Assembly: GCA_964510165.1 (NCBI GenBank)
Contig: CAZEBC010000139.1
Coordinates: forward strand, 1 to 10,695
Source: an uncultured bacterium
GTDB lineage: Bacteria; Abyssobacteria; SURF-5
Direction: 5' to 3'
Length of the DNA stretch: 10,695 bases
Position numbers and translations under genes: made by a program. The first letter of the stretch is position 1, and each line of letters starts with the position of its first letter. Shown piece by piece: positions 1 through 10,695 of the stretch. The notes under the pieces are model-generated. The model did no database searches, was not told where the DNA came from, and was given only the letters and a program-made list of their open reading frames with translations.

Positions 1-527
1 CCGGGAAAATGCTTGGCGGCGGCGAGGATGCCGTTTTGTTGGATACCGCGTATCATAGCGGCGCCGAGCCGTGCGGCGAGCGTGGGGTCGGAGCCAAACG
101 CGCGCGCGCCGACGCCGGGATTATACGGGTTGGAGTTGATATCGAGGACCGGTGCGAAGTTCACGTTGATTCCGAGCGAGGCGAGTTCCGCTCCGGTAAC
201 GTCACCCACCTGACGGGCAAGGTCATCTGAGCCGATTGCGCCGAGGGCCATATTGCCGGGAAACACCGTGACGCCGTCGGTGATTCTGGCGACACAGCCA
301 CCCTCCTGGTCAATAGCGATGAAGAGGGGCGAGTCGTTCACCTCCCGCCGGAATTGCTGCAGTTGTTCGCACATCTCCTTGAGGTGGGCGGCGCTTCGAA
401 TATTTCTTGAAAAGAGTATGATGCCGCCGACGTGATACCGTTTGATGAGGTCGCTTGCGGCTTTCGGGTCGGTTCCGTAGAATCCGACCATGAACATCTC
501 GCCGACTTTTTCGATCAAGCTCGACAT
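1..527 (-). CDS. nagZ: Glycoside hydrolase family 3 beta-N-acetylglucosaminidase (NagZ-like); partial, 3' end runs off the window
   Basis: Not in the ORF track. Manual translation from ATG at 527 gives MSSLIEKVGEMFMVGFYGTDPKAASDLIKRYHVGGIILFSRNIRSAAHLKEMCEQLQQFRREVNDSPLFIAIDQEGGCVARITDGVTVFPGNMALGAIGSDDLARQVGDVTGAELASLGINVNFAPVLDINSNPYNPGVGARAFGSDPTLAARLGAAMIRGIQQNGILAAAKHFPG. It has the GH3 motifs GGIILFxRN, DQEGG, FAPVLD, RAFG and KHFPG. No signal peptide. An SD-like GAAGGA lies in the last codons of the upstream gene. Confidence 0.93.
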   Translation of the reverse strand, partial: MSSLIEKVGEMFMVGFYGTDPKAASDLIKRYHVGGIILFSRNIRSAAHLKEMCEQLQQFRREVNDSPLFIAIDQEGGCVARITDGVTVFPGNMALGAIGSDDLARQVGDVTGAELASLGINVNFAPVLDINSNPYNPGVGARAFGSDPTLAARLGAAMIRGIQQNGILAAAKHFP

Positions 528-533
528 CGAGAA

Positions 534-1679
534 CTATCCTTCATATAAGAAGTACTGTTGCCTGAGTTTTTCGAATTCCGCGAGCGGGCGCTTCCACTCT
601 TCGAAAATCGCTTTGGGAGGAAGGCCGCCGCACAGTGCGCGTCTCAGGGAATCGGAGCCTGAAAGCGCATCGAAATGGGCCCCGTTCCATTCAAGCTCGC
701 GATGTCGGGCGGCGATGAGCGAAAGCAATGCCACCGCGAACGCGATCGGGTCCGCCGTCTCCCTGTCGACAGTGGTTATTGCCAGGCCGGTGCATTCAGT
801 TCCTGCATATTTTGATGATTTGGGAACAAAACGCTGGGGTGTCAGCGCGAAGCCCGCGGTCCATTGTTGGTCGAGCCGGGTGATAAGCGTCGGGTCCAGC
901 CAAGGCGCGCCGAGCAGCCGGAACGGCGAGGCTGTGCCGCGCCCTTCCGAGAGGTTCACGCCCTCGAACAGGCATGTTCCGGTATAGCAGAGGGCGGTCT
1001 CCGGGGTGAGAATCGCGGGCGAGGGGGGCAGCCACTCAAGTCCCGTGTCCGTGAACCATAGCCGTCTTCGCCAGCCTTGCATCCTTATGACGGCCAGGTT
1101 CGCGCCTATCTCGAAACGTTGATTAAAAAGGAGCGCCAGTTCTCCTGTGGTCAGTCCGTGCCGCAACGGGATGGGATACATTCCCACGAAGGAGGCGAAT
1201 CGGGTATCCAGCACAGGCCCCTGCAGGGCCACGCCTCCGAGCGGGTTTGGACGATCGAGCACGACAAACAGCTTGCCAAACAGCGCGGCCGCCTGCATTG
1301 CGAGCGCCATCGTCCAGATATATGTGTAGCACCGTGTGCCGATGTCCTGGAGGTCGAACACGAGGGCGTCAATATCGCGCAGCATCAGAGGAGTTGGCTG
1401 ACGGGTCTCGCCGTACAGGCTCATGACGGTCAGCCCCGTGGCGGGTTCGATTGAATCGGAAATCTTCTCGCCTGCCGAGAATGTGGCGCTGAAGCCGTGC
1501 TCGGGCGTGAAGATGCAGCGCAGGTCAACGCCCGCGCGCAATAGGAGCGAGGCCGTCGGCGTTCCATGCTCGTCGGCGCTGGCGGCATTGGCTATCAAGC
1601 CCGCGCGCGCGCCTTCAAGGATGTCGAGTTCCGATTCGAGGAGGCGCGTGACGCCGAGCTTGATGGATTGCTTAGTCAT
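534..1679 (-). CDS. namZ: Exo-beta-N-acetylmuramidase NamZ / DUF1343 (YbbC) family, 381 aa
   Basis: Family motifs FTPEHGF, SLYG, FDLQDIGTRCYTY, LDRPNPLGG, PLRHGLTTGELA, PPSP and SEGRGT..PF..LGAPW. I placed the start at ATG 1679 (MTKQSIKLGV), which overlaps the SpoIID stop by 8 bp. The track's start at 1805 lies deep inside the SpoIID gene. No hydrophobic signal peptide. Confidence 0.92.
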   Translation of the reverse strand: MTKQSIKLGVTRLLESELDILEGARAGLIANAASADEHGTPTASLLLRAGVDLRCIFTPEHGFSATFSAGEKISDSIEPATGLTVMSLYGETRQPTPLMLRDIDALVFDLQDIGTRCYTYIWTMALAMQAAALFGKLFVVLDRPNPLGGVALQGPVLDTRFASFVGMYPIPLRHGLTTGELALLFNQRFEIGANLAVIRMQGWRRRLWFTDTGLEWLPPSPAILTPETALCYTGTCLFEGVNLSEGRGTASPFRLLGAPWLDPTLITRLDQQWTAGFALTPQRFVPKSSKYAGTECTGLAITTVDRETADPIAFAVALLSLIAARHRELEWNGAHFDALSGSDSLRRALCGGLPPKAIFEEWKRPLAEFEKLRQQYFLYEG

Positions 1680-3495
1680 ACAATTGCTTGACCTCGGCCC
1701 CTGAGAAATAGTGTTTGAGGATTTCAAGCGCCTTGTAGTCGCGGAGCGCCATTCCCTCGGCGCCAGCCTGGCACAAGCCGACGCCGTGACCCCATCCGCC
1801 GCCATAGAACGTGAAGGAGGTTGGTCTTCCCGCGGAATCGCGGGGTATCTCGATGATGAACATCGAGCTTTTCAGTCCGCCGAGCGCGCGCCTTATCTGG
1901 AGTTCCTTATTAATTACCGCGACATCGCGGCTGCCGGTAATCTTTATCTGCAGGGCGCGGCCCGATTTCCCTCTGCGGAGAATCTTGATATCCTTTACAG
2001 AGCCGACGCTGCGGTGCCTATTCACCACAGCATCCATTTCCTTTGGCGAGTATCTGACTCTCCAACGGAAATTGTTCTGGTTGCCGACGCGCGGGTCGGA
2101 GCAATAGGCGCGGGGAGTTCGTTTGAGCCACAGATCAAGCTGCGAACTGGGAAGCGGGAAATGGAATGAGTCGGGATTCGAATAGAGGTCCGAGACTCCG
2201 CGGAGCGCCCGATTTGGGCTGGAACTCCATACATCTTCGTTGTTCTCGGTATGGCCGCCGCAATTGGCGGAGTATACGGCCTCGATGAGCGAGCCGTTGT
2301 ACATGAGCACCTGGCCACGAGTGGCATTGACGGCGGCATCGGTTCTGGTCGTACGCCGGGTAAGCCCGCCAAACTCCTGGCAATGCTGCGAGGCGCAGAA
2401 GTCGAATGGGTCATAGAGGTGCTGTATTCCGAGCTTTGCCAGGGCCTCGGTACGTGCGGCGATGGCCTGGGCCTTCAGCGCTTCGTCGGGAGCGGTGAGC
2501 CTAATTTCAACCGGCACTATCCCTTTGACGTATTCTTCCAGGGCAAGCTTGTTAATTGCGGCCAGTTTTCCCTTCTGGTCGACTATTATCTCTATGGGTC
2601 CTGAGAAAATCCGGTCCTCGTTGTTGCTCGATCCCCAGAAGCCGGCGCCGAATGGCACATCCAGAATCTTTATGGGAGAGCCGCTCGTAACGGTGACGTG
2701 CGAATTGGCGTAGGCGCGAGGATTGCCGTTCCCGTCGACCAGCTCGATGTTTCCCCTCGGGTTGAGAACGCTTTCATCAATGACCCAGCATGACGCTCCG
2801 CGCCGGAACAGTTTGTCGCGGAACTCCTCGGCGGCCCTTCTGTCCTTAAACATCCCAAGCGCCACCCAATAGAGCGTGGTGTCGGCAATCGAGCCGTCAG
2901 CTTGCACCAGGGGCCCGCCTGCCCTTATGAGCCGAACGGTATAACCTTCGTTCTTCCACTTTTCGGCCGATTTGAGCGCCCGGTCGTATTCCTCTCCCTT
3001 GAAGGTCGCCACGCCGACGGCGTACCGGTGCACCGAGACCCGCGCGCTTCTTGGCCTGAACGTGATGTGCGAATTCGGCTCCACCTTCATGACATTTTGG
3101 CCGAAGCTCAAGGCCAGCCCGCGGTCACCCTTGACGGTGATTGCCGAGGCGTCACCCAAAATTCGCACCCTGAGGATAGGCTCGACGTATGCCTTGCGCG
3201 GCTCGACCTTTCTCGGTTCGATCACCGGAACGGTTGGCTTGGGTTTAGGTTCGGGCTGCGGCGGCAGTTTCGGCGTTTCTACCGCCGAAGTCGGCGGCAC
3301 AAGGCTGTGCTCGAGAGTCGGCTCAATCTGTGCGATCTCCTGGTTTGCGGTCGGAATGGCATAGATATCCTCCGACACTGTGATCGGTTCGGTTTCAGGC
3401 AGGATAGCTTGTTGCAGTTCTTGCCTCGCGCAACACACTATGAAGAGAAGGCTGGCTAATGAAACTGTCAATGAAAAGAAACCATTGCGAATCAA
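1672..3495 (-). CDS. SpoIID/LytB-domain lytic transglycosylase with N-terminal signal/anchor, Pro-rich linker and SPOR-like domain, 607 aa
   Basis: SpoIID motifs LEEYVKGIVPVE (putative catalytic E330), EALKAQAIAART, CASQHCQ, AVNATRGQVL, YSANCGGHTE, GWGHGVGLCQAGA and EILKHYF. Hydrophobic N-terminus ending LLFIVCC (possible lipobox). TTG start preceded by AAGGAG with a 7-nt spacer. Confidence 0.92.
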   Translation of the reverse strand: MIRNGFFSLTVSLASLLFIVCCARQELQQAILPETEPITVSEDIYAIPTANQEIAQIEPTLEHSLVPPTSAVETPKLPPQPEPKPKPTVPVIEPRKVEPRKAYVEPILRVRILGDASAITVKGDRGLALSFGQNVMKVEPNSHITFRPRSARVSVHRYAVGVATFKGEEYDRALKSAEKWKNEGYTVRLIRAGGPLVQADGSIADTTLYWVALGMFKDRRAAEEFRDKLFRRGASCWVIDESVLNPRGNIELVDGNGNPRAYANSHVTVTSGSPIKILDVPFGAGFWGSSNNEDRIFSGPIEIIVDQKGKLAAINKLALEEYVKGIVPVEIRLTAPDEALKAQAIAARTEALAKLGIQHLYDPFDFCASQHCQEFGGLTRRTTRTDAAVNATRGQVLMYNGSLIEAVYSANCGGHTENNEDVWSSSPNRALRGVSDLYSNPDSFHFPLPSSQLDLWLKRTPRAYCSDPRVGNQNNFRWRVRYSPKEMDAVVNRHRSVGSVKDIKILRRGKSGRALQIKITGSRDVAVINKELQIRRALGGLKSSMFIIEIPRDSAGRPTSFTFYGGGWGHGVGLCQAGAEGMALRDYKALEILKHYFSGAEVKQLYD

Positions 3496-3502
3496 TTGAA
3501 CA

Positions 3503-3508
3503 CTCCTT
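3503..3508 (-). promoter_or_regulatory. Shine-Dalgarno site (AAGGAG) for the TTG-initiated SpoIID gene
   Basis: The minus strand reads acAAGGAGtgttcaaTTG in the 16-bp gap between the permease stop (3512) and the TTG at 3495. Confidence 0.7.
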
Positions 3509-3511
3509 GTT

Positions 3512-4315
3512 TCACCCCTTTAGTGCGCCTGCTCGTACTCCTCGCACGAACATCTGTTGGAACAATAGGAACACCCCGAACATGGGCAGCGACGCGACGA
3601 CTGCGCCCGCCATTAACAAGCCGTAATCGAGCGCGTGTTTATCCTGCAATGTGGAAAGACCCACCGTGAGCGTATAGGACTCGGCGCTGTTGAGCACCAG
3701 CAGTGGCCAGAGGAACGAATTCCAATTCGAAATGAAGAGGAAGACGGCGAGCACCCCGAGCGCGGGCGCGGAAACAGGCAGAATGATCCGTTGAAAAATC
3801 TGAAACTCGGTGCACCCGTCTATCCGGGCGGCTTCCTCAAGGGTGGTCGGTATCGTCACCATGTATTGTCGCATGAAGAAGATTCCGAACGGGCCGGCCA
3901 GCCCGGGCAATATGGCGGCCCACAATGTATCCACGAGGTGGAGCCTCACCATCATGATATACAGCGGGACTATAAGGATATGAACCGGGATCATCAAGGT
4001 TCCCATCATCAGCCAGAAGAGCGGGGTGCGGCCAGGGAACCGCTTTCGCGCGAAGGCATAGCCGGCCATGCTGTCGAAAAGAAGCTGGCCGAGTGTGATG
4101 ACGGCGCAAATGACGAATGAGTTCAGCGTCCATCGCGCTATGGGAGCGTTCAGGAGCAGGTTCGCGTAGTTTGCGGTTGTCAAATGGGGGCTGATCACTG
4201 ACTGAAAGACCTCGAAGTCCTCAGCCGGCCAGAACGAGGTGTATCCCATCCAGAGCATGGGAAAGACGGAGATCATGGCTCCGAGCGTCAGAATGCCCAT
4301 TCTCACGTGTCTCAT
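3512..4315 (-). CDS. Carbohydrate ABC transporter permease (CUT1, MalG-like), 267 aa
   Basis: About six hydrophobic segments, the EAA loop IPTTLEEAARIDGC, and the motifs NS...SMAGYAFAR, WNSFLWPL and FLLFQQMFVRGVRAGALKG. Confidence 0.95.
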   Translation of the reverse strand: MRHVRMGILTLGAMISVFPMLWMGYTSFWPAEDFEVFQSVISPHLTTANYANLLLNAPIARWTLNSFVICAVITLGQLLFDSMAGYAFARKRFPGRTPLFWLMMGTLMIPVHILIVPLYIMMVRLHLVDTLWAAILPGLAGPFGIFFMRQYMVTIPTTLEEAARIDGCTEFQIFQRIILPVSAPALGVLAVFLFISNWNSFLWPLLVLNSAESYTLTVGLSTLQDKHALDYGLLMAGAVVASLPMFGVFLLFQQMFVRGVRAGALKG

Positions 4316-4330
4316 AGTATCTTTGCCAGG

Positions 4331-6580
4331 TCAATATTCGACCTCGGACCTGAAGAACCTGTATTGCAAAGCCGATGCCAATGCGATGACGCCCAATAAG
4401 AGGAACGACATGGCGGATGCCAGCCCGAAATCGAAGTCTCTGATCGCCGTTGTATAAATCCTGTGGGCGATAACCTCGGTCGCGTATCCCGGCCCGCCGT
4501 CTGTGAGGATGAATACCTGTGTGAACACCTGGAACGATGCGATAGTTATTGTCAGCGCGATGAACAGTGTAGTCGGCCTCAGGAGAGGAACACTGACGTG
4601 CCACCACTTCTTCAGCGACCCGGCCCCATCCATTTCGGCGGCATCGTACAGAGACTTCGGTATTGCATCGAGCGCGGCGAGGTAGATGAGTATTGGTCCG
4701 CCGGGCGGCCTGGCGATGCTTGTCAGTATCACGCTCCACAAAGCCACATGCGGGCTGGTCAGCCATCTGACCCCCGGGAGGCCGAAAAAGCCAAGCGATT
4801 GATTGAGCAGGCCGAAGTCTTCATTGAACATCCAGCGCCAGACCATTGCAATGACGACAACGGAAGCCACGCCGGGCAGGTAGTAGGCACCCCGAAAGAA
4901 CGCTCTCGCCCGCTCCGAAAGCGGATATATGAGGCTGGCGACCACGAGAGCCGAAAGCGTGCTTGCGGGCACGACCACAACTGTGTATACGATCGTATTC
5001 AGGGAGGCCCGAAGAAATGCCGCGTCATGAAAGACTGCGCGCATGTTCCCGAGGCCGGTCCATGTTCCACTTCCGTCCGCGATGGAGTATTTTTGAAACG
5101 AAAGCGCCGTCACCCATGCCAGTGGAAACAGCAGGAACACCGCGAAGATTGCCAAGGCTGGCAAGAGGAATCCAAAGGCGGAGGCCGCGTTCGCGCCTTT
5201 TCGCCGAGCGAAGAATAGCATTGCGGGGGTGGATACCGCTGCGACAACAAGCACCGTCAGGACTAACATGAGGATTCGGTTGGTTTTCACCGCCTTGCTC
5301 TCTCCACCGGTCCTCGCTCTTGTGTTCAGGGTTTGTCGTGCGTGTGCAATCGCGTCGGACAACGCGGCCTGCGCCGGTTTTTCACCCAGCAGAGCCAATT
5401 GAAATGCGCGCTGCAAGTCCTCGTCTATCTTTGACCATTCAGGATGTTGGGGAACGGTTTGGCCTCGCTCGATTATTGCCTGAGTCTCCGCCATGGGCCG
5501 GTCATCCTCATAGATGTTGCCAGCCGATGTCCTCGATGGGAACACGCCATATTGCGCGAGGTCTTTTTGGGCCTCGGGCCGGACCAAGAACCTGGCAAAG
5601 TCCATGCAGAGTGAGCGTTTCGCTTCGTCCTGCTGTTTCAGCACGAAAATGCCGGAGACGCCGATGAAGGCCCGCCTCGGGGCTGAGAGAGGAGAGTCAA
5701 TTGAGGGAAACGGAAGGACGGCGAAATTGAAATCGCCCATCGAGCGCAATTTCGGGATCGCCCATACACCCCATGGCGCCATGGCGATCTCACGCCTGTG
5801 CGCGAACCGCTGCCACAGGGCCTCCGTGTCCCACGCGGCGCACTGGATGGGCGAAACACTGCTCTTATGGATGAGGCCGTGGAGGAAAGCGATTCCGGCG
5901 GCGGGTTCGGCCTCTTCCTTGAAGGTGACGCCGTTCGCAAAGAGGAACGGCCACACGGCGGTGTCGCCGGGCCTTATGAGAAAGCCGAAGCCATGGATAT
6001 CCGGGACTCCATCTCCATTAATGTCACGCGTCAGCTTTCGCGCGCAGTCAAGGAACTCGGCGGTGGTCCAATTGTGGCCGGGAAGCGCGACATCGAGTTG
6101 CCTAAACAAATCGAGGTTGAGGAACATGGCGTTTCCTGTCAGGTACCACGGCCAGCCATACACCATGCCGTCGTACGTGAGCGCGTCAAGCGCGGGCGAG
6201 AGGAAATCGGCCCGTTCCTCCGCGTTCATGTAGTCGTCAATCGGCTCTACAAGGTTGCTCTCGACAAGCTGTACGGGTAGTGTGCCGGTGATAATGTCGG
6301 GGCCTACACCTGCGGATATGGCGATGCGCTTTTTGTCCTCGCCATGTTCCCAACTGAGTTCGGTGAGTTCGATGGAAACTCCGGGATGATTGCGTTCAAA
6401 ATCGGCCGCCTGTTGGCGCACCCAAAAAAACCTGTCGATTGAATCAGGCGTCTCGCGCCAACGCGGATATTCCCACAATTTGAGCGAGAGCGGTTTCTGC
6501 TGAGGTCCACAACCGGTAAGGATTGGTAGAGAGATAAGGAGAATCGCAAGGAACTTGCACGAAATGGTTGAAGTCAGCAT
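4331..6580 (-). CDS. Fused carbohydrate ABC substrate-binding lipoprotein plus MalF-like permease, about 749 aa
   Basis: Lipobox LTG-C24. Sugar-binding-protein features include FERNHPGVSIEL, GVGPDI, YDGMVYGWPW, W..AEFLDCARKLT.D.NGDG and FLVRPEAQ. These are followed by hydrophobic helices with FLLPAL, YLPGV.SVVV.AMVWRWMFN..FGLLN, the EAA loop IPKSLYDAAEMDGA, SFQVF and LTDGGP. Start is ATG 6580 (TGATG overlap with the upstream stop) or TTG 6583. Confidence 0.92.
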   Translation of the reverse strand: MLTSTISCKFLAILLISLPILTGCGPQQKPLSLKLWEYPRWRETPDSIDRFFWVRQQAADFERNHPGVSIELTELSWEHGEDKKRIAISAGVGPDIITGTLPVQLVESNLVEPIDDYMNAEERADFLSPALDALTYDGMVYGWPWYLTGNAMFLNLDLFRQLDVALPGHNWTTAEFLDCARKLTRDINGDGVPDIHGFGFLIRPGDTAVWPFLFANGVTFKEEAEPAAGIAFLHGLIHKSSVSPIQCAAWDTEALWQRFAHRREIAMAPWGVWAIPKLRSMGDFNFAVLPFPSIDSPLSAPRRAFIGVSGIFVLKQQDEAKRSLCMDFARFLVRPEAQKDLAQYGVFPSRTSAGNIYEDDRPMAETQAIIERGQTVPQHPEWSKIDEDLQRAFQLALLGEKPAQAALSDAIAHARQTLNTRARTGGESKAVKTNRILMLVLTVLVVAAVSTPAMLFFARRKGANAASAFGFLLPALAIFAVFLLFPLAWVTALSFQKYSIADGSGTWTGLGNMRAVFHDAAFLRASLNTIVYTVVVVPASTLSALVVASLIYPLSERARAFFRGAYYLPGVASVVVIAMVWRWMFNEDFGLLNQSLGFFGLPGVRWLTSPHVALWSVILTSIARPPGGPILIYLAALDAIPKSLYDAAEMDGAGSLKKWWHVSVPLLRPTTLFIALTITIASFQVFTQVFILTDGGPGYATEVIAHRIYTTAIRDFDFGLASAMSFLLLGVIALASALQYRFFRSEVEY

Positions 6581-8433
6581 CAACTTATCTTTTTTATGCG
6601 ATCTTCAGGGATATCAATGGAACCGTTCTTCATTTGAAGCCTGATTCCGTTGGGTGTCTTCTCATATGCTGTGCCTCGCATATTGTAGCCGCTTTTCAGA
6701 TAGACTATGACTTCGCCCGGTGAGGCCGTCGGCTCCGGAACCGGGGGAGAAGAGATCATCTCGACGACTTCCACTTCTTCGACGACCTCGGTTTCGGGCA
6801 GGTAGTCCATCTTGGGCTTCTTGTTGAGCGCCACCTTCAGTTTGACGGGTGAGGGATCGTTCCTGTAATCTTCGTAATACTTGAGTACTCGAGGCACATA
6901 CGCTTTGGTCTCTTTGAACGGGGGGATTCCGCCATACCGCAGGACATTGCCGGGTCCGGCGTTGTACGCGGCGAGCGCGAGGTTGAGGTCGTTGTTGAAA
7001 AGCTCGAGCATCCGCGAGAGATATTGCACGCCTCCGCCGATGTTGTCGCTCGGATCGAATATGTCCTGCACGTTCATTTCTTCCGCGGTCGGGGGCATGA
7101 GCTGCATCAGGCCTCTAGCGCCGGCGCTCGAGACGACGTAGGGGTCGAAATTGGATTCGGCCTTGATGACGGCTTTGACAAGCGCCGGTGAGACTCCGTA
7201 ATCCTTGGCGTAGAAACGAATGATCTCTTCGAGGTCGAACTCCTCGACCTCCGGCTCACCCTTTACCTTCCTAACGACTTTCTCCCTCGTGATCTTCTTG
7301 ATCGGCTCATAGTTAAGGAGCACATAATCCGGTCCCAGGTCCTTGACGTGGCTCGTCAACTTGAGTAATCCGGACTTGTGCTGATACAGATATATGTTCG
7401 GCTCTTTGCCCTCGCGCCCGTACAAATGACGCGGGACATGTCGTTTCTTGAACCCGTTCTCCTCCTCGGTCTTGCGGGCAGTCGCCTCATCACATTCTCT
7501 CGCGCGCTGAGCTATGGCCGAAGATTGCGAATCCACCGAGGCGGCAAGTTCATAGATCTGGTGGGTGATAATGCCACAAGGAAGGTCAAAAAACTCGTTT
7601 CCAACAAATGAAGGGGTAAGCGGGATTCGTCTACCTTCCTGTTTCAAGGCGACGAGCGCGGAGTACACATCATCGGGATAATTGTTCTGCGAAGAGAAGC
7701 GTATCTGCTCGGCATAATAACTCACGCGTGCCGACATCGAAGCGGCAAGGGAGGCAGGTTCATTGGAGAGAATGGTATACCAGACGGTCGCGACCGTCTC
7801 GACGGCCCGCTTGAAAGCCGGCGTTACAATATCGTTTCGGCATGCTGGATATCCGTCGCCCGCCAGGTATCGTGTTCTTACGAAGTTCTCGGAAAGACGG
7901 GAGTCATTTGCGAGACGGTCCAGATAGTTTGCCGGATAAGTCAGGGAAAAGGGAGCCGGAAGCAGGAACTTCTTAAAGGTGTCAAGGTCGGCGTCGATAT
8001 CATTCTCGAAGTCGGCCAGGAGCGCCGTGTCAGTCGAGCTCGAGCATGCAAGGGGCAATGTGGATTCGGCCACTGCCGAGCCAATTTGTCCGAGGCGGAA
8101 CGCGAAGTAATGTGATATTTCGACGTTGTGGGGGATTAGCATGAGAAGCTGGATATCTGGGGCGATTTGCGAGCCAATGCTTGGACTAATTGAGGCCTTG
8201 GTGGGCTGCTGCGGTTTCTTCTCTGACGCGCCCCGGAGCAGATCATCCTTGTATGGGCTGAGCCGAGCGGAGTATTCGGCGGGAAGCGCGTCAAGAGCGA
8301 GTTCGGCGATTTCGCGATGAGCGCGTGGTCCCCATGCCGAAGATTCACCCGGGAGCAGACAAGCACCAAGTGCGATCAGTGCGCAGAGCACGCGTCTGTA
8401 AGCGGCGCGAGGGCGCATAGTGATGGTGCGCAT
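6580..8433 (-). CDS. Secreted multidomain Slt-family (GH23) lytic transglycosylase, 617 aa
   Basis: SLT motifs AVIKAES (catalytic E426), GARGLMQLMP.TA, NIGGGVQYL, LALAAYNAGPG and PPFKETKAYV. Signal peptide ending SSA|W. The N-terminal helical region resembles the Zn-PLC/P1-nuclease fold, and there is a small C-terminal beta domain. An alternative ATG lies at 8418. Confidence 0.9.
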   Translation of the reverse strand: MRTITMRPRAAYRRVLCALIALGACLLPGESSAWGPRAHREIAELALDALPAEYSARLSPYKDDLLRGASEKKPQQPTKASISPSIGSQIAPDIQLLMLIPHNVEISHYFAFRLGQIGSAVAESTLPLACSSSTDTALLADFENDIDADLDTFKKFLLPAPFSLTYPANYLDRLANDSRLSENFVRTRYLAGDGYPACRNDIVTPAFKRAVETVATVWYTILSNEPASLAASMSARVSYYAEQIRFSSQNNYPDDVYSALVALKQEGRRIPLTPSFVGNEFFDLPCGIITHQIYELAASVDSQSSAIAQRARECDEATARKTEEENGFKKRHVPRHLYGREGKEPNIYLYQHKSGLLKLTSHVKDLGPDYVLLNYEPIKKITREKVVRKVKGEPEVEEFDLEEIIRFYAKDYGVSPALVKAVIKAESNFDPYVVSSAGARGLMQLMPPTAEEMNVQDIFDPSDNIGGGVQYLSRMLELFNNDLNLALAAYNAGPGNVLRYGGIPPFKETKAYVPRVLKYYEDYRNDPSPVKLKVALNKKPKMDYLPETEVVEEVEVVEMISSPPVPEPTASPGEVIVYLKSGYNMRGTAYEKTPNGIRLQMKNGSIDIPEDRIKKIS

Positions 8434-8452
8434 TTGTGTTGCCCCAATTGGA

Positions 8453-10695
8453 TCAACGCGACACGCCAGCGGCGTACAGAGTCATCTTGGTCGGACCGCT
8501 TCCGACTTCAATCGTATCGAGCACGTTGAGCCCTTCTGTCGCGATCACGGAAACATTGTTGTCAAAGCGGTTGGAAACATAAATATATCGGCCATCGGGG
8601 CTGACCATTACACCGCTTGGGCCGTTACCCAAGGGGAGTTCGCCGACGATCTTGAAGGTGTCGGTATCGATGACCGAGAGGGTCTGCGAGAAAAAATTGA
8701 CGCAGTAGAGGGTCCTTCCATCTGGCGAGAGCGCGAGCGCTTCGGGCCGGTCTCCGACCGGCAGAGCGCCAACCACCGAATCGCCCTGGATGGTGGTGAC
8801 TCTGTCCTCTATGGAATCGGCGACATACAACTTTCCATCGGGCCCGAGCGAGATCGCCTTGGGTGAGCGACCGACTTTGATCGTCGATACCACTTTATTG
8901 GCCTCAGTATCGACTATTGAGACGGCGCCCGAGTATCTGTCGGCGCTGTAGAGGCGTGTTCCGTCGGATGAGAGCGCCAACGCTATCGGTCCGGCGCCGA
9001 CCTTGACGGTGGAAACCACTTCGGCCTCCGGCATGGCGAGGACGGATATGGTGGAATCCTCATCATTGGCGACGTACACAATCTTCCCGTTCGGGTGTAG
9101 GGCCACTGCGCGAGGATAGAGTCCTACCGGGGTCCGGGAGAGCACTTTTCCCGTCTCGGCATCGACCACCAGCAGCGAATTCTCGTAGCGCATTGTTATG
9201 TAGAGACGGTTGGACAGCGGGTCAACGGCCAGTCCTTCAGGACGGTCTCTCAGGCGGAATTTCGAGACGATTTCGTGGGCGCGCATATCCATGACGCTGA
9301 TGTCGTGGCTGTCCTCGTTCACGATGAGGGCGGCAAGTGCTTGAATCTTCACGCCGCCGACCGTTTCGCCTTCGATCTTCATTTCCTGTTCGAGCGGCGG
9401 CACGAGTCGCGAGATGAGAAGTTGCTCCGGCTTGGCGGCAAGCGGCTTGCTTGGTTCCCTTGCAGGAACGGGTTCCGCCTCAGTCTGTTCCGACAGAGGT
9501 GGATGTGGTAACGCTTCTTTGACCCCAAACTCAGGGGAGATCGGCTCTGCCGATGCCGAGGCACGAGTTTGTGACGGTTCGAGCCGGGGTTGTAGCGACG
9601 CTGCGTCGGTCGCCTCAGTCTCGGTCGGTGCTGCGGGGAGTGTGGATGGCTCCTTCTCGGAGGCGCCGGTTTCGTCCGGTTCGACGCGCTCCTTGGCGGG
9701 AAGCGGCGGACTCTGGGGCGGGCGCCCGAGTTCCTTTGCGCCGGTTTCAGATCCCTCCGGCTGCAAGATGTAAAGCGCATCCGATTCACTAGCGGTCACG
9801 AGAACGATGTCGGAACCCGGGACCAGCGCGAGGTGTGTGGGAGCCTTTCCGACCGCGATATCGGAATGAGCGATGTCGTAGGGATCGGTAACGCGCAGGG
9901 TGTCGCTCTCCTTGTTGATCACGAAGAGCGTGGAGCCCTTCTGATCCATGGCGATGTCAAAGGGCGTCTGGCCAATGTGCAGCTCACCTTTGACTGATAG
10001 GGTTTCAGTGTCAATTACAACAAGCCTGCTGCCGTCATGATCGGCGACGTATAGTCGTGCGCCGTCCGGCGAGATTGCCACGGCTCGCGGGAATCCGCCG
10101 ACCGCGACTTCCTCAACAATCGCGCCTGTGCCCGAATCGAGGACGAGCACCGCCGCTTTCTCGCGTACCGCGACAAAGAGGAGCTTGCCGTCCGGGGAGA
10201 TGGCGAGGTCGTGTGGATAATCGTCGAGAGGGAATGCGGTTGTGGCTTGTCTCTGCCTGGTACTGATTACGGTGATGCTCTGGCCCATGAGATTGGCGAC
10301 GAATAGGGTGGCGTTATCCCCGGACAGGGCCATCGATAGAGGGCCGTCGTCCACTTGAATTCGCGATTCGACGGTATCGGTCTCAGGGTTTATGAGCCAC
10401 ACATCGCCCGATAGGAAATTGGCGGCGGCAAGAAACGAGTTGTCGCTCGCGATGGCGAGCGAAGAGGGCCCGTCCCCTGCAGCGATATCGGTGAGTTTGG
10501 CTTTCGTTGCAAGGTCTATGATGCTGAGATTGTCCGAACCAAAGTTGGCGACATATGCATACGCGCCGTCACGGGTAACCACTACGGCGCGCGGGTTTTC
10601 GTTTACCGGGATCGAGGTGGGATTTTGGTATTGCGCGGGTTGCGCGACGGCAGTCGCCGCAAGGAGAATGCAGAGCGCCAGTGTCGCGGGAAGCA
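8453..10695 (-). CDS. Secreted YVTN/YncE-family protein with two 7-bladed beta-propellers; partial at the 5' end, at least 746 aa
   Basis: About 14 repeats of roughly 42 aa of the form I.VG..P..lA.SPDG..LYVAN...VSVID. The frame stays open upstream of the track's GTG at 10582 to the window edge and reads LPATLALCILLAATAVA|QPAQYQNPTSIPVNENPRAVV, which is a signal peptide plus the first blade. Confidence 0.92.
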   Translation of the reverse strand, partial: LPATLALCILLAATAVAQPAQYQNPTSIPVNENPRAVVVTRDGAYAYVANFGSDNLSIIDLATKAKLTDIAAGDGPSSLAIASDNSFLAAANFLSGDVWLINPETDTVESRIQVDDGPLSMALSGDNATLFVANLMGQSITVISTRQRQATTAFPLDDYPHDLAISPDGKLLFVAVREKAAVLVLDSGTGAIVEEVAVGGFPRAVAISPDGARLYVADHDGSRLVVIDTETLSVKGELHIGQTPFDIAMDQKGSTLFVINKESDTLRVTDPYDIAHSDIAVGKAPTHLALVPGSDIVLVTASESDALYILQPEGSETGAKELGRPPQSPPLPAKERVEPDETGASEKEPSTLPAAPTETEATDAASLQPRLEPSQTRASASAEPISPEFGVKEALPHPPLSEQTEAEPVPAREPSKPLAAKPEQLLISRLVPPLEQEMKIEGETVGGVKIQALAALIVNEDSHDISVMDMRAHEIVSKFRLRDRPEGLAVDPLSNRLYITMRYENSLLVVDAETGKVLSRTPVGLYPRAVALHPNGKIVYVANDEDSTISVLAMPEAEVVSTVKVGAGPIALALSSDGTRLYSADRYSGAVSIVDTEANKVVSTIKVGRSPKAISLGPDGKLYVADSIEDRVTTIQGDSVVGALPVGDRPEALALSPDGRTLYCVNFFSQTLSVIDTDTFKIVGELPLGNGPSGVMVSPDGRYIYVSNRFDNNVSVIATEGLNVLDTIEVGSGPTKMTLYAAGVSR
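9345..9765 (-). other. Low-complexity Pro/Glu/Ala/Ser/Thr-rich linker between the two beta-propellers
   Basis: Translation RPPQSPPLPAKERVEPDETGASEKEPSTLPAAPTETEATDAASLQP...PVPAREPSKP (about 140 aa) has almost no aromatic residues and no repeat motif. Boundaries are approximate. Confidence 0.75.

Follow-up and report, generated by a model that had tools for sequence, protein, structure and literature searches.

The window analysed here, a stretch of 10,695 bases that makes up the whole of contig C139 in the metagenome-assembled genome (MAG) of an uncultured bacterium, is probably the middle of a nine-gene operon. Judged as a whole, the explanation that we consider likely is that this operon recycles the sugar backbone of peptidoglycan, with an ATP-binding cassette (ABC) importer of the carbohydrate-type CUT1 family, whose solute-binding protein (SBP) is fused to a permease, standing in for AmpG and MurP. 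The source MAG (G000) consists of 325 contigs and 4.17 Mb at 57.7% G+C, and is 97% complete with 1.6% contamination. The window is filled by seven genes, every one on the minus strand:

10693 to 8453, minus strand: exported double YVTN/YncE-type beta-propeller protein (Pfam and NCBIfam matches), its 5′ end cut by the contig end
8433 to 6580, minus strand: exported SLT lytic transglycosylase, 617 amino acids (aa), PF01464
6583 to 4331, minus strand: SBP-permease fusion, 750 aa (SBP_bac_8, SBP_bac_1, BPD_transp_1, UgpA/GlcT)
4315 to 3512, minus strand: second permease, UgpE/MalG type, 267 aa (BPD_transp_1, UgpE, MalG)
3495 to 1672, minus strand: exported SPOR-SpoIID/LytB protein, 607 aa (TIGR02669, PF08486, PF05036)
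1679 to 534, minus strand: NamZ, of the GH171 exo-beta-N-acetylmuramidase family, 381 aa (NamZ_N and NamZ_C)
527 to 3, minus strand: first 175 aa of a NagZ-type GH3 protein (PF00933), the remainder lying past the contig end

The spacing between these genes ranges from −8 to 19 nt. The propeller gene lies 19 nt upstream of the SLT gene, the SLT stop overlaps the start of the fusion, the NamZ ATG at 1679 overlaps the SpoIID stop codon by 8 nt (ATGACTAA), and the remaining gaps are 7 to 19 nt. An earlier sequence-only reading had described two exported transglycosylases, a CUT1 importer, namZ and nagZ as tightly linked on one strand, and all of them were confirmed, on the minus strand. Terminator-like hairpins are no more frequent than expected by chance (14 observed versus 10.2 ± 3.4 in shuffled sequence). 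Among the sequencing runs searched, no RNA run carried the window locus; six DNA runs in four studies matched it.

The operon's continuation is found on contig C261 of the same genome (4,089 bp), where one strand carries the C-terminal part of NagZ, then AnmK (NF007148, 489.8 bits versus 387; NF007142, 454.7 bits versus 435), then a double Amidase_3 protein of 711 aa whose signal is lipoprotein-like. The unassembled sequence between C139 and C261 is confined to part of nagZ. The start of the leucyl-tRNA synthetase (LeuRS) gene is on contig C321, and LeuRS precedes the propeller gene in all three relatives' loci examined. In the relatives, NagZ is followed by AnmK (383–390 aa; PF03702, 333–358 bits) and then by a double Amidase_3 protein of 600–800 aa, called as two frames in loci L005 and L008; AnmK-then-amidase order holds in six of six loci by Pfam and in seven of seven loci reaching that far by tblastn. 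The search for anmK downstream of nagZ, which had been proposed as a check, therefore succeeded in all seven of those relatives and on C261. The unit had earlier been placed at positions 1 to 8433. Its genes are indeed there, but the conserved unit is larger, extending to the propeller gene and, beyond the contig, to AnmK and the amidase. Because the gene after AnmK encodes a double amidase of the MurNAc-L-Ala type (MurNAc, N-acetylmuramic acid), it would supply the step that makes glycan peptide-free.

We scanned genomes with the fusion as query and obtained 56 loci. Eight are 60–67% identical to the fusion, some in genomes publicly labelled Ca. Abyssobacteria or Ca. Poribacteria. All seven window genes stand in order in L001 and L005–L008, and in L002, L003 and L004 as far as the contigs allow. 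The conserved cluster starts with the propeller gene, which is syntenic in L001, L005–L008, L078 and L109. In the sole genome of a second family (G010, 46% identity), the order propeller-SLT-fusion-permease-SpoIID runs up to the contig end. Neighbourhood conservation, which was to be checked with the fusion as query, is thus seen in the relatives and partly in the second family. The SBP and permease, in a single 750-aa frame in the window, form a true fusion, which is an uninterrupted frame of 740–824 aa in all 11 species genomes of the reference phylum. The gene linkage is far beyond chance, and all related loci of sufficient length share it.

The known importers that this transporter would replace were looked for in the host genome, as had also been proposed, and neither ampG nor murP was found. 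The best AmpG match (TIGR00901) scores 19.2 bits against a cut-off of 350; no genome of the 11 in the phylum exceeds it, and Escherichia coli and one other of the control genomes do. There are no matches to a phosphotransferase system (PTS) EIIC component, which is matched in 7 of 14 control genomes, and the absence of PTS EIIC means that the genome has no MurP. The MurQ model (TIGR00274) reaches at best 39.4 bits against 302, with matches in frames of 640 and 202 aa and in KdsD; MurQ passes in 0 of 11 phylum genomes and in 6 of 14 controls. Among 31 outgroup genomes, two and three lie above the cut-off in the AmpG and MurQ searches.

Cellular locations were deduced from a simple hydropathy scan of N-termini. 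The propeller, SLT, fusion, SpoIID and amidase proteins have an N-terminal hydrophobic signal, and the same scan found none on NamZ, NagZ or AnmK. Since these three enzymes lack export signals, glycan fragments are probably imported and then cut in the cytoplasm. This agrees with the order of release, import and hydrolysis that had been proposed, with signals on the hydrolases and the SBP and none on the three enzymes that would act last.

The proposed route has four steps, each reasoned from protein families, characterised homologues or export signals. Outside the cytoplasmic membrane, the double Amidase_3 lipoprotein would strip stem peptides from the wall. The SPOR domain would then target the SpoIID/LytB enzyme to peptide-free glycan, and this enzyme and the SLT protein would cut strands into soluble oligomers of N-acetylglucosamine (GlcNAc) and MurNAc, many of them ending in 1,6-anhydro-MurNAc. 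The lipid-anchored, permease-fused SBP would bind these fragments, and the CUT1 importer would pump them in, powered by a lone MalK/UgpC-type ATPase. In the cytoplasm, NagZ would remove GlcNAc, NamZ would remove MurNAc, and AnmK would turn anhydro-MurNAc into MurNAc-6-phosphate (MurNAc-6P).

The transporter at the centre of this route fits the CUT1 family, having two permeases of the UgpA/MalF and UgpE/MalG types and an SBP_bac_1/8 protein with a MalE-like fold. The N-terminal part of the fusion matches SBP_bac_8 (PF13416, 102.7 bits) and SBP_bac_1 (PF01547, 74.5 bits) over residues 56–355, and its lipobox, LTGC, has a Cys that is retained in the alignment consensus. The C-terminal part, residues 471–750, matches UgpA (110 bits), GlcT (120 bits) and BPD_transp_1 (PF00528). 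The second permease matches BPD_transp_1 (PF00528, 62 bits), UgpE (130 bits) and MalG (112 bits). A MalK/UgpC-type ATPase exists in a single genome copy (C103:12943-13932, in L064), at a contig end and adjoining methyltransferase genes; it scores 399 bits with UgpC against a subfamily cut-off of 432, its frame being cut by the contig end, and 31.6 bits against 27 with OB_MalK. We infer that this unlinked ATPase pairs with the operon's importer, and every CUT1 permease in the cell presumably depends on it. The solute-binding part was modelled separately:

5249 to 6511, minus strand: solute-binding domain of the fusion, residues 25–445 (AlphaFold model)

The model, built from 31 sequences, has a predicted local distance difference test score (pLDDT) of 87.1. 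Its best Foldseek matches are CUT1 oligosaccharide SBPs (E-values of 1e-27 to 1e-22, 17–22% identity), and the top neighbours bind cycloalternan, maltotriose, sucrose/maltotriose, sophoro-oligosaccharides (sophoropentaose) and arabinobiose. Sequence matches to solved SBPs are remote (best E-value 3e-16). The modelled fold fits an oligosaccharide ligand, whose identity the fold does not give.

Chitin oligosaccharides would be one such ligand, with NagZ acting as a chitobiase. NagZ-type GH3 enzymes and CUT1 importers do handle chitobiose, as with the Streptomyces importers NgcEFG and DasABC, and a chitin-oligosaccharide SBP (7ehp) is among the weak PDB sequence matches (E-value 0.0011). However, NamZ, AnmK, the MurNAc-L-Ala amidase, SPOR, SpoIID and SLT are all peptidoglycan-specific, and domain searches of the cluster found no chitinase or chitin-binding domain. 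We consider chitin uptake highly improbable.

Returning to the recycling of the wall's sugar backbone, NamZ is the enzyme that bears most directly on what is imported. Its halves match the Rossmann-like NamZ_N (263.2 bits versus 26.9) and NamZ_C (148.8 bits versus 25), so that both DUF1343 halves are present; it departs from the B. subtilis enzyme in carrying no secretion signal, a difference of location and not of fold. The gene had earlier been started at position 1805, but the alignment of all eight orthologues begins at the 1679 start, and the longer, 423-aa frame is an artefact. With the start fixed in this way, an export signal is absent in eight of eight phylum orthologues. A cytoplasmic NamZ needs a MurNAc non-reducing end inside the cell, which argues for import of units larger than a disaccharide in this phylum. 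The NagZ part in the window (residues 1–175, PF00933, 162.8 bits) ends at KHFP; truncation keeps its NF003740 score, 118.5 bits, under the cut-off of 207, and full-length orthologues of 507–523 aa score 317 bits.

The two putative glycan-cutting enzymes carry additional domains:

2779 to 2985, minus strand: SPOR domain of the SpoIID/LytB protein, residues 171–239 (PF05036, 23.8 bits versus a cut-off of 21, a marginal match)
6901 to 7224, minus strand: SLT catalytic domain, residues 404–511 (PF01464, 106.4 bits; NCBIfam lytic transglycosylase models)
7750 to 8334, minus strand: N-terminal domain of the SLT protein, residues 34–228, with a zinc-dependent phospholipase C (PLC)/S1-P1 nuclease fold (AlphaFold model)

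The SPOR-SpoIID/LytB protein runs from an N-terminal hydrophobic anchor through a Pro-rich linker and SPOR to the SpoIID/LytB domain (TIGR02669, 196.8 bits versus a cut-off of 83.3; PF08486, 88 bits). SpoIID is found in all 14 aligned orthologues and SPOR in 8 of the 14 at E ≤ 0.01 (best 1.4e-6). The Glu within VPVEIRL is invariant (as E330), and we take it, provisionally, to be equivalent to catalytic E88 of B. subtilis SpoIID.

The SLT protein is ordered as signal peptide, PLC/S1-P1-nuclease-like helical domain, TPR-like helices and C-terminal SLT domain. Its translation contains AESNF, GLMQLM and AYNAGPGNV, which we take to be the motifs of family-1 lytic transglycosylases, with the Glu-Ser pair catalytic. 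The model of the N-terminal domain (pLDDT 74.2) aligns to 1ah7_A by VIA-align with Z 15.7 and a root-mean-square deviation of 3.0 over 192 residues, the next unrelated fold scoring Z 5.4; Foldseek matches are weak (E-values of 0.011–0.2) and a protein atlas search with this domain gave no usable match. The domain opens, straight after the predicted signal peptide, with W-G-P-R-A-H (W-G-x-x-x-H), presumably resembling the N-terminus of P1 nuclease. Because only one possible metal ligand, His10 in model numbering, is invariant in eight orthologues, this domain, with few conserved candidate ligands, may be non-catalytic. We know of no described fusion of a PLC/S1-P1 nuclease fold with an SLT domain. 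The propeller protein, also exported, matches Pfam YNCE (124 bits) and Lactonase (126 bits) with TIGR02276 repeats and has a Pro/Glu-rich linker. A different propeller-like protein, together with TPR proteins, lies upstream in a second group of fused-transporter loci, here called clade B.

We also scanned metagenomes with an alignment of the fusion and sorted the resulting 25 loci by their tblastn matches to a cluster-protein panel:

L078 (1 locus): the window's type
L080, L081, L082, L085, L088, L091 and L099 (7 loci): fusion, permease, kinase-like gene and MurQ, plus SpoIID
L089 and L093 (2 loci): kinase-like gene and SpoIID, no MurQ match
L083, L087 and L090 (3 loci): kinase-like gene alone
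L079, L084, L086, L092, L094, L096–L098, L100 and L101 (contigs of 2–4.7 kb), and L095 (11 loci in all): transporter alone
L102 (1 locus): distant (29% identity), no other panel match

L081, L082 and L099 are near-identical, and the contigs of L083 and L087 end inside the kinase-like gene. The fused transporter of clade B is 39–41% identical to that of the window. The layout of fusion, permease, kinase, MurQ and SpoIID is also found in a genome labelled Ca. Riflebacteria (L009), whose MurQ, at 369.8 bits, clears the cut-off of 302. For the kinase-like protein there are matches in L085 and L091 (36 and 38 bits versus 31.5) to the BadF/BadG/BcrA/BcrD ATPase family, to which the characterised MurNAc kinases (MurK) belong; the L009 copy has no Pfam match and a weak NagK match alone. 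L091 also encodes a second SpoIID-domain protein (20667-22175, 93 bits), 4 kb downstream of the first.

In L095 (44.5% G+C), two Amidase_3 proteins of about 965 aa are encoded directly upstream of the fusion and permease, a link seen by Pfam only. Both (3007-8871) combine Amidase_3, fn3, five CarboxypepD_reg repeats and a type IX secretion sorting domain, and they are followed by a PorP/SprF-like gene, the fused transporter, a 1,921-aa fn3 protein and an OmpA-domain protein. Going by these domains, L095 appears to be a locus for harvesting peptidoglycan at the cell surface. In three clades, then, the fused transporter is accompanied by MurNAc-specific enzymes or MurNAc-L-Ala amidases. Apparently widespread fusions in Oscillospiraceae and Lachnospiraceae, suggested by full-length tblastn matches, were rejected, as their SBP frames (411–526 aa) end in a stop codon and the permease is separate; these loci gave no match to SLT, SpoIID, NamZ, NagZ, AnmK, amidase or MurQ queries. 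In a quick maximum-likelihood tree, built from 66 SBP domains without the fragment L101, all fused sequences fall on one side, with a pair of Paenibacillus homologues outside, at an SH-like approximate likelihood-ratio (SH-aLRT) value of 85, below the 95 mark.

We next consider what becomes of the imported MurNAc. The route had been called full, and in this respect it is not, with no MurQ and no clear AmgK/MurU for MurNAc-6P or MurNAc. The best score with the MurU model is 75.8 bits against 250, a cut-off that none of the 14 controls passes either, making this a weak test. APH-family matches lie at six places on five contigs of the genome, and none shares a contig with an NTP_transferase or NTP_transf_3 match; the clearest, a 316-aa protein on C20, has no nucleotidyltransferase neighbour. 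A short nucleotidyltransferase of 241 aa on C48 scores 243.6 bits with RmlA against 360.65 and 76 with MurU against 250, and by its sequence could be a divergent MurU. Directly upstream of this sugar-1-phosphate nucleotidyltransferase is a small SPOR protein (46 bits; C48:1-4000, L103, frames 700-1425 and 82-669, respectively). NagA is present (348 bits versus 226); its gene lies between those of a SIS_2 protein and a GNAT acetyltransferase (C31:14326-18459, L107, frames 727-1464, 1486-2658 and 2667-3335). The SIS_2 "sugar isomerase domain" protein (245 aa; NF002805, 272.8 bits versus 135) is a candidate for the missing step on MurNAc-6P or glucosamine-6-phosphate.

Several observations weigh against the recycling operon as we have described it. 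In profile searches of its own genome, the pathway is open-ended, MurQ not being found and AmgK/MurU not being clear. The SBP is without a close characterised relative in sequence and fold searches. The eight closely syntenic genomes are kin and not independent samples, so what they show is retention over the depth of the phylum. The clade B transporter may carry MurNAc or a small unit for the neighbouring kinase and MurQ. The Riflebacteria-labelled genome has two AmpG-like permeases (198 and 194 bits, below the cut-off), AnmK, and NamZ matches at three loci, and both NamZ copies inspected have signal-like N-termini; with AmpG-like permeases and exported NamZ in clade B, the import of oligomers may hold only for the window's phylum. 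Lastly, the nearest cultured homologues are two from Paenibacillus, unfused, with SBPs of 33–34% identity (36% over the whole query). They lie between a GlpP-type glycerol-3-phosphate antiterminator and a type I phosphodiesterase (L010:9173-14755 and L011:9180-14773), neighbours which suggest uptake of a phosphodiester or glycerophospho compound. These different neighbours indicate that transporter specificity changes at that distance.

The clade B observations favour the same operon with a smaller cargo, namely MurNAc, anhydro-MurNAc or GlcNAc-anhydro-MurNAc in place of longer peptide-free oligomers. The partners in clade B are a BadF-type kinase and MurQ with no glycosidase, the two signal-like NamZ paralogues suggest hydrolysis to monosaccharides before uptake, and exolytic lytic transglycosylases typically release disaccharides. 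Nevertheless, the NamZ of the window's phylum is encoded in the operon and is signal-less in all eight orthologues, and would need at least imported MurNAc-GlcNAc, or a tetrasaccharide. Moreover, the proteins closest in fold to the SBP bind di- to octa-saccharides, and we regard the smaller cargo as unlikely. The available part of the report on the Waddlia chondrophila SpoIID describes it as a lytic transglycosylase on sacculi that releases (NAG-NAM)2 from denuded glycan (PMC6635528). The most specific form of our explanation, in which the phylum has replaced AmpG with a lipid-anchored, fused-SBP importer of peptide-free oligomers cut by a SPOR-guided SpoIID enzyme, takes these apart in the cytoplasm with NamZ, NagZ and AnmK, and sends MurNAc-6P into an enzyme step other than MurQ or AmgK/MurU, is put forward tentatively, at somewhat less than even confidence.

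The Paenibacillus neighbours also bear on whether the transporter has anything to do with the wall. It could import some other sugar or a glycerophosphodiester and merely sit among wall-hydrolase genes, given that CUT1 specificity is unreadable from sequence and that the best NCBIfam permease matches are UgpA and UgpE. Yet its genes are in mid-cluster, in overlapping or nearly abutting frames, and keep that place across the phylum. Two further clades link the transporter with MurQ, a sugar kinase and SpoIID, or with amidases, and the genome keeps cytoplasmic NagZ, NamZ and AnmK without any other known wall-fragment importer. An unrelated transporter is therefore very unlikely.

The origin of the peptidoglycan is a separate matter. 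MurB is present in all 11 phylum genomes, and so the lineage builds its own wall; the presence of KdsD suggests lipopolysaccharide and hence two membranes, and the organism is likely diderm. The cluster could nevertheless feed mainly on foreign peptidoglycan, from necromass or the walls of prey. The L095 amidases carry type IX sorting domains and would be sent to the cell surface or beyond, the export signals of the window hydrolases do not separate periplasmic from secreted enzymes, NagA is present for the use of GlcNAc, and window-matching DNA is found in freshwater and hot-spring metagenomes. Against a feeding role, no MurQ to catabolise MurNAc was found in any of the 11 phylum genomes, and the cluster shows no component for uptake across the outer membrane. 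SPOR, amidase and lytic transglycosylase together are, in the available portions of two reports, a known set for septal self-turnover (PMC6895207, PMC6635528). Foreign-wall feeding and own-wall recycling are not mutually exclusive, and we regard feeding as the main function as possible, if doubtful.

The recycling operon that we favour shares parts with several known systems. As in E. coli and Pseudomonas, periplasmic lytic transglycosylases would produce anhydro-MurNAc fragments that are processed by cytoplasmic NagZ and AnmK; the differences here are the absence of AmpG and MurQ, an ABC importer with a tethered SBP, a cytoplasmic NamZ, and peptides that are probably removed outside by Amidase_3, whereas AmpD removes them inside in those species. 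The murQ-murR-murP-amiE-nagZ-namZ operon of B. subtilis, in the sections available of its description, likewise has NagZ and NamZ side by side with an amidase and dismantles glycan stepwise from the non-reducing end; there, NagZ, NamZ and AmiE are secreted, and MurNAc enters via the MurP PTS and proceeds to MurQ (PMC8054146). Here, by contrast, NagZ and NamZ are signal-less, there is no PTS EIIC or MurQ, and AnmK and two lytic transglycosylases are added.

YejBEF-YepA of Agrobacterium tumefaciens is an ABC system of the peptide/Opp type. According to the accessible parts of two articles, it too replaces AmpG with an ABC importer in a lineage lacking AmpG (PMC9790009, PMC11509177), its cargo being anhydromuropeptides (PMC11509177). 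The importer here differs in being of the CUT1 carbohydrate type, with a MalK/UgpC-type ATPase, a fused SBP and a probably peptide-free glycan cargo.

RlpA is a lytic transglycosylase with a SPOR domain that acts on denuded glycan, and its catalytic domain has the RlpA fold. The logic of RlpA acting after AmiB in Pseudomonas and Vibrio is similar, as the excerpts available describe an amidase that denudes glycan, a SPOR domain that recognises it and an attached domain that cuts (PMC6895207). Here the catalytic domain is instead SpoIID/LytB, and its gene is inside an operon for uptake and catabolism. The Waddlia SpoIID, a homologue from a non-sporulating diderm, also works with amidases on septal peptidoglycan, and the available part of that report mentions no SPOR fusion or linkage to a transporter or to NamZ, NagZ and AnmK (PMC6635528). 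UspABC of Mycobacterium tuberculosis belongs to the CUT1 family as well, and UspC is among the proteins structurally similar to the SBP model (ranks 42 and 50) but has 17–18% identity and is not fused to a permease. UspC binds amino sugars and has been proposed to act in wall recycling; we know of no link of UspABC to NamZ, AnmK or SpoIID.

A 2024 review of muropeptide transporters lists, in the part available, MurP, NagE, AmpG, Opp (Opp/MppA), CadB and YejBEF-YepA, with no carbohydrate-type ABC importer among them (PMC11509177). Our full-text search found no open-access paper describing this gene combination, in keeping with the sequence-only reading, which knew of no such characterised pathway. 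We rate the route as a new variant that would combine Gram-negative logic with the NagZ-NamZ-amidase set of B. subtilis, a CUT1 importer replacing AmpG and MurP.

What is understood of peptidoglycan recycling comes from a few model bacteria. If our explanation is correct, the operon would represent a third transport solution for wall fragments, give NamZ its first intracellular role, and provide the denuded glycan left by amidases at the septum with a defined physiological sink. The operon offers as leads a compact SBP domain, the fused-SBP architecture within CUT1 and the missing MurNAc-6P enzyme, and the fused transporter group could mark this route in the genomes of uncultured lineages.

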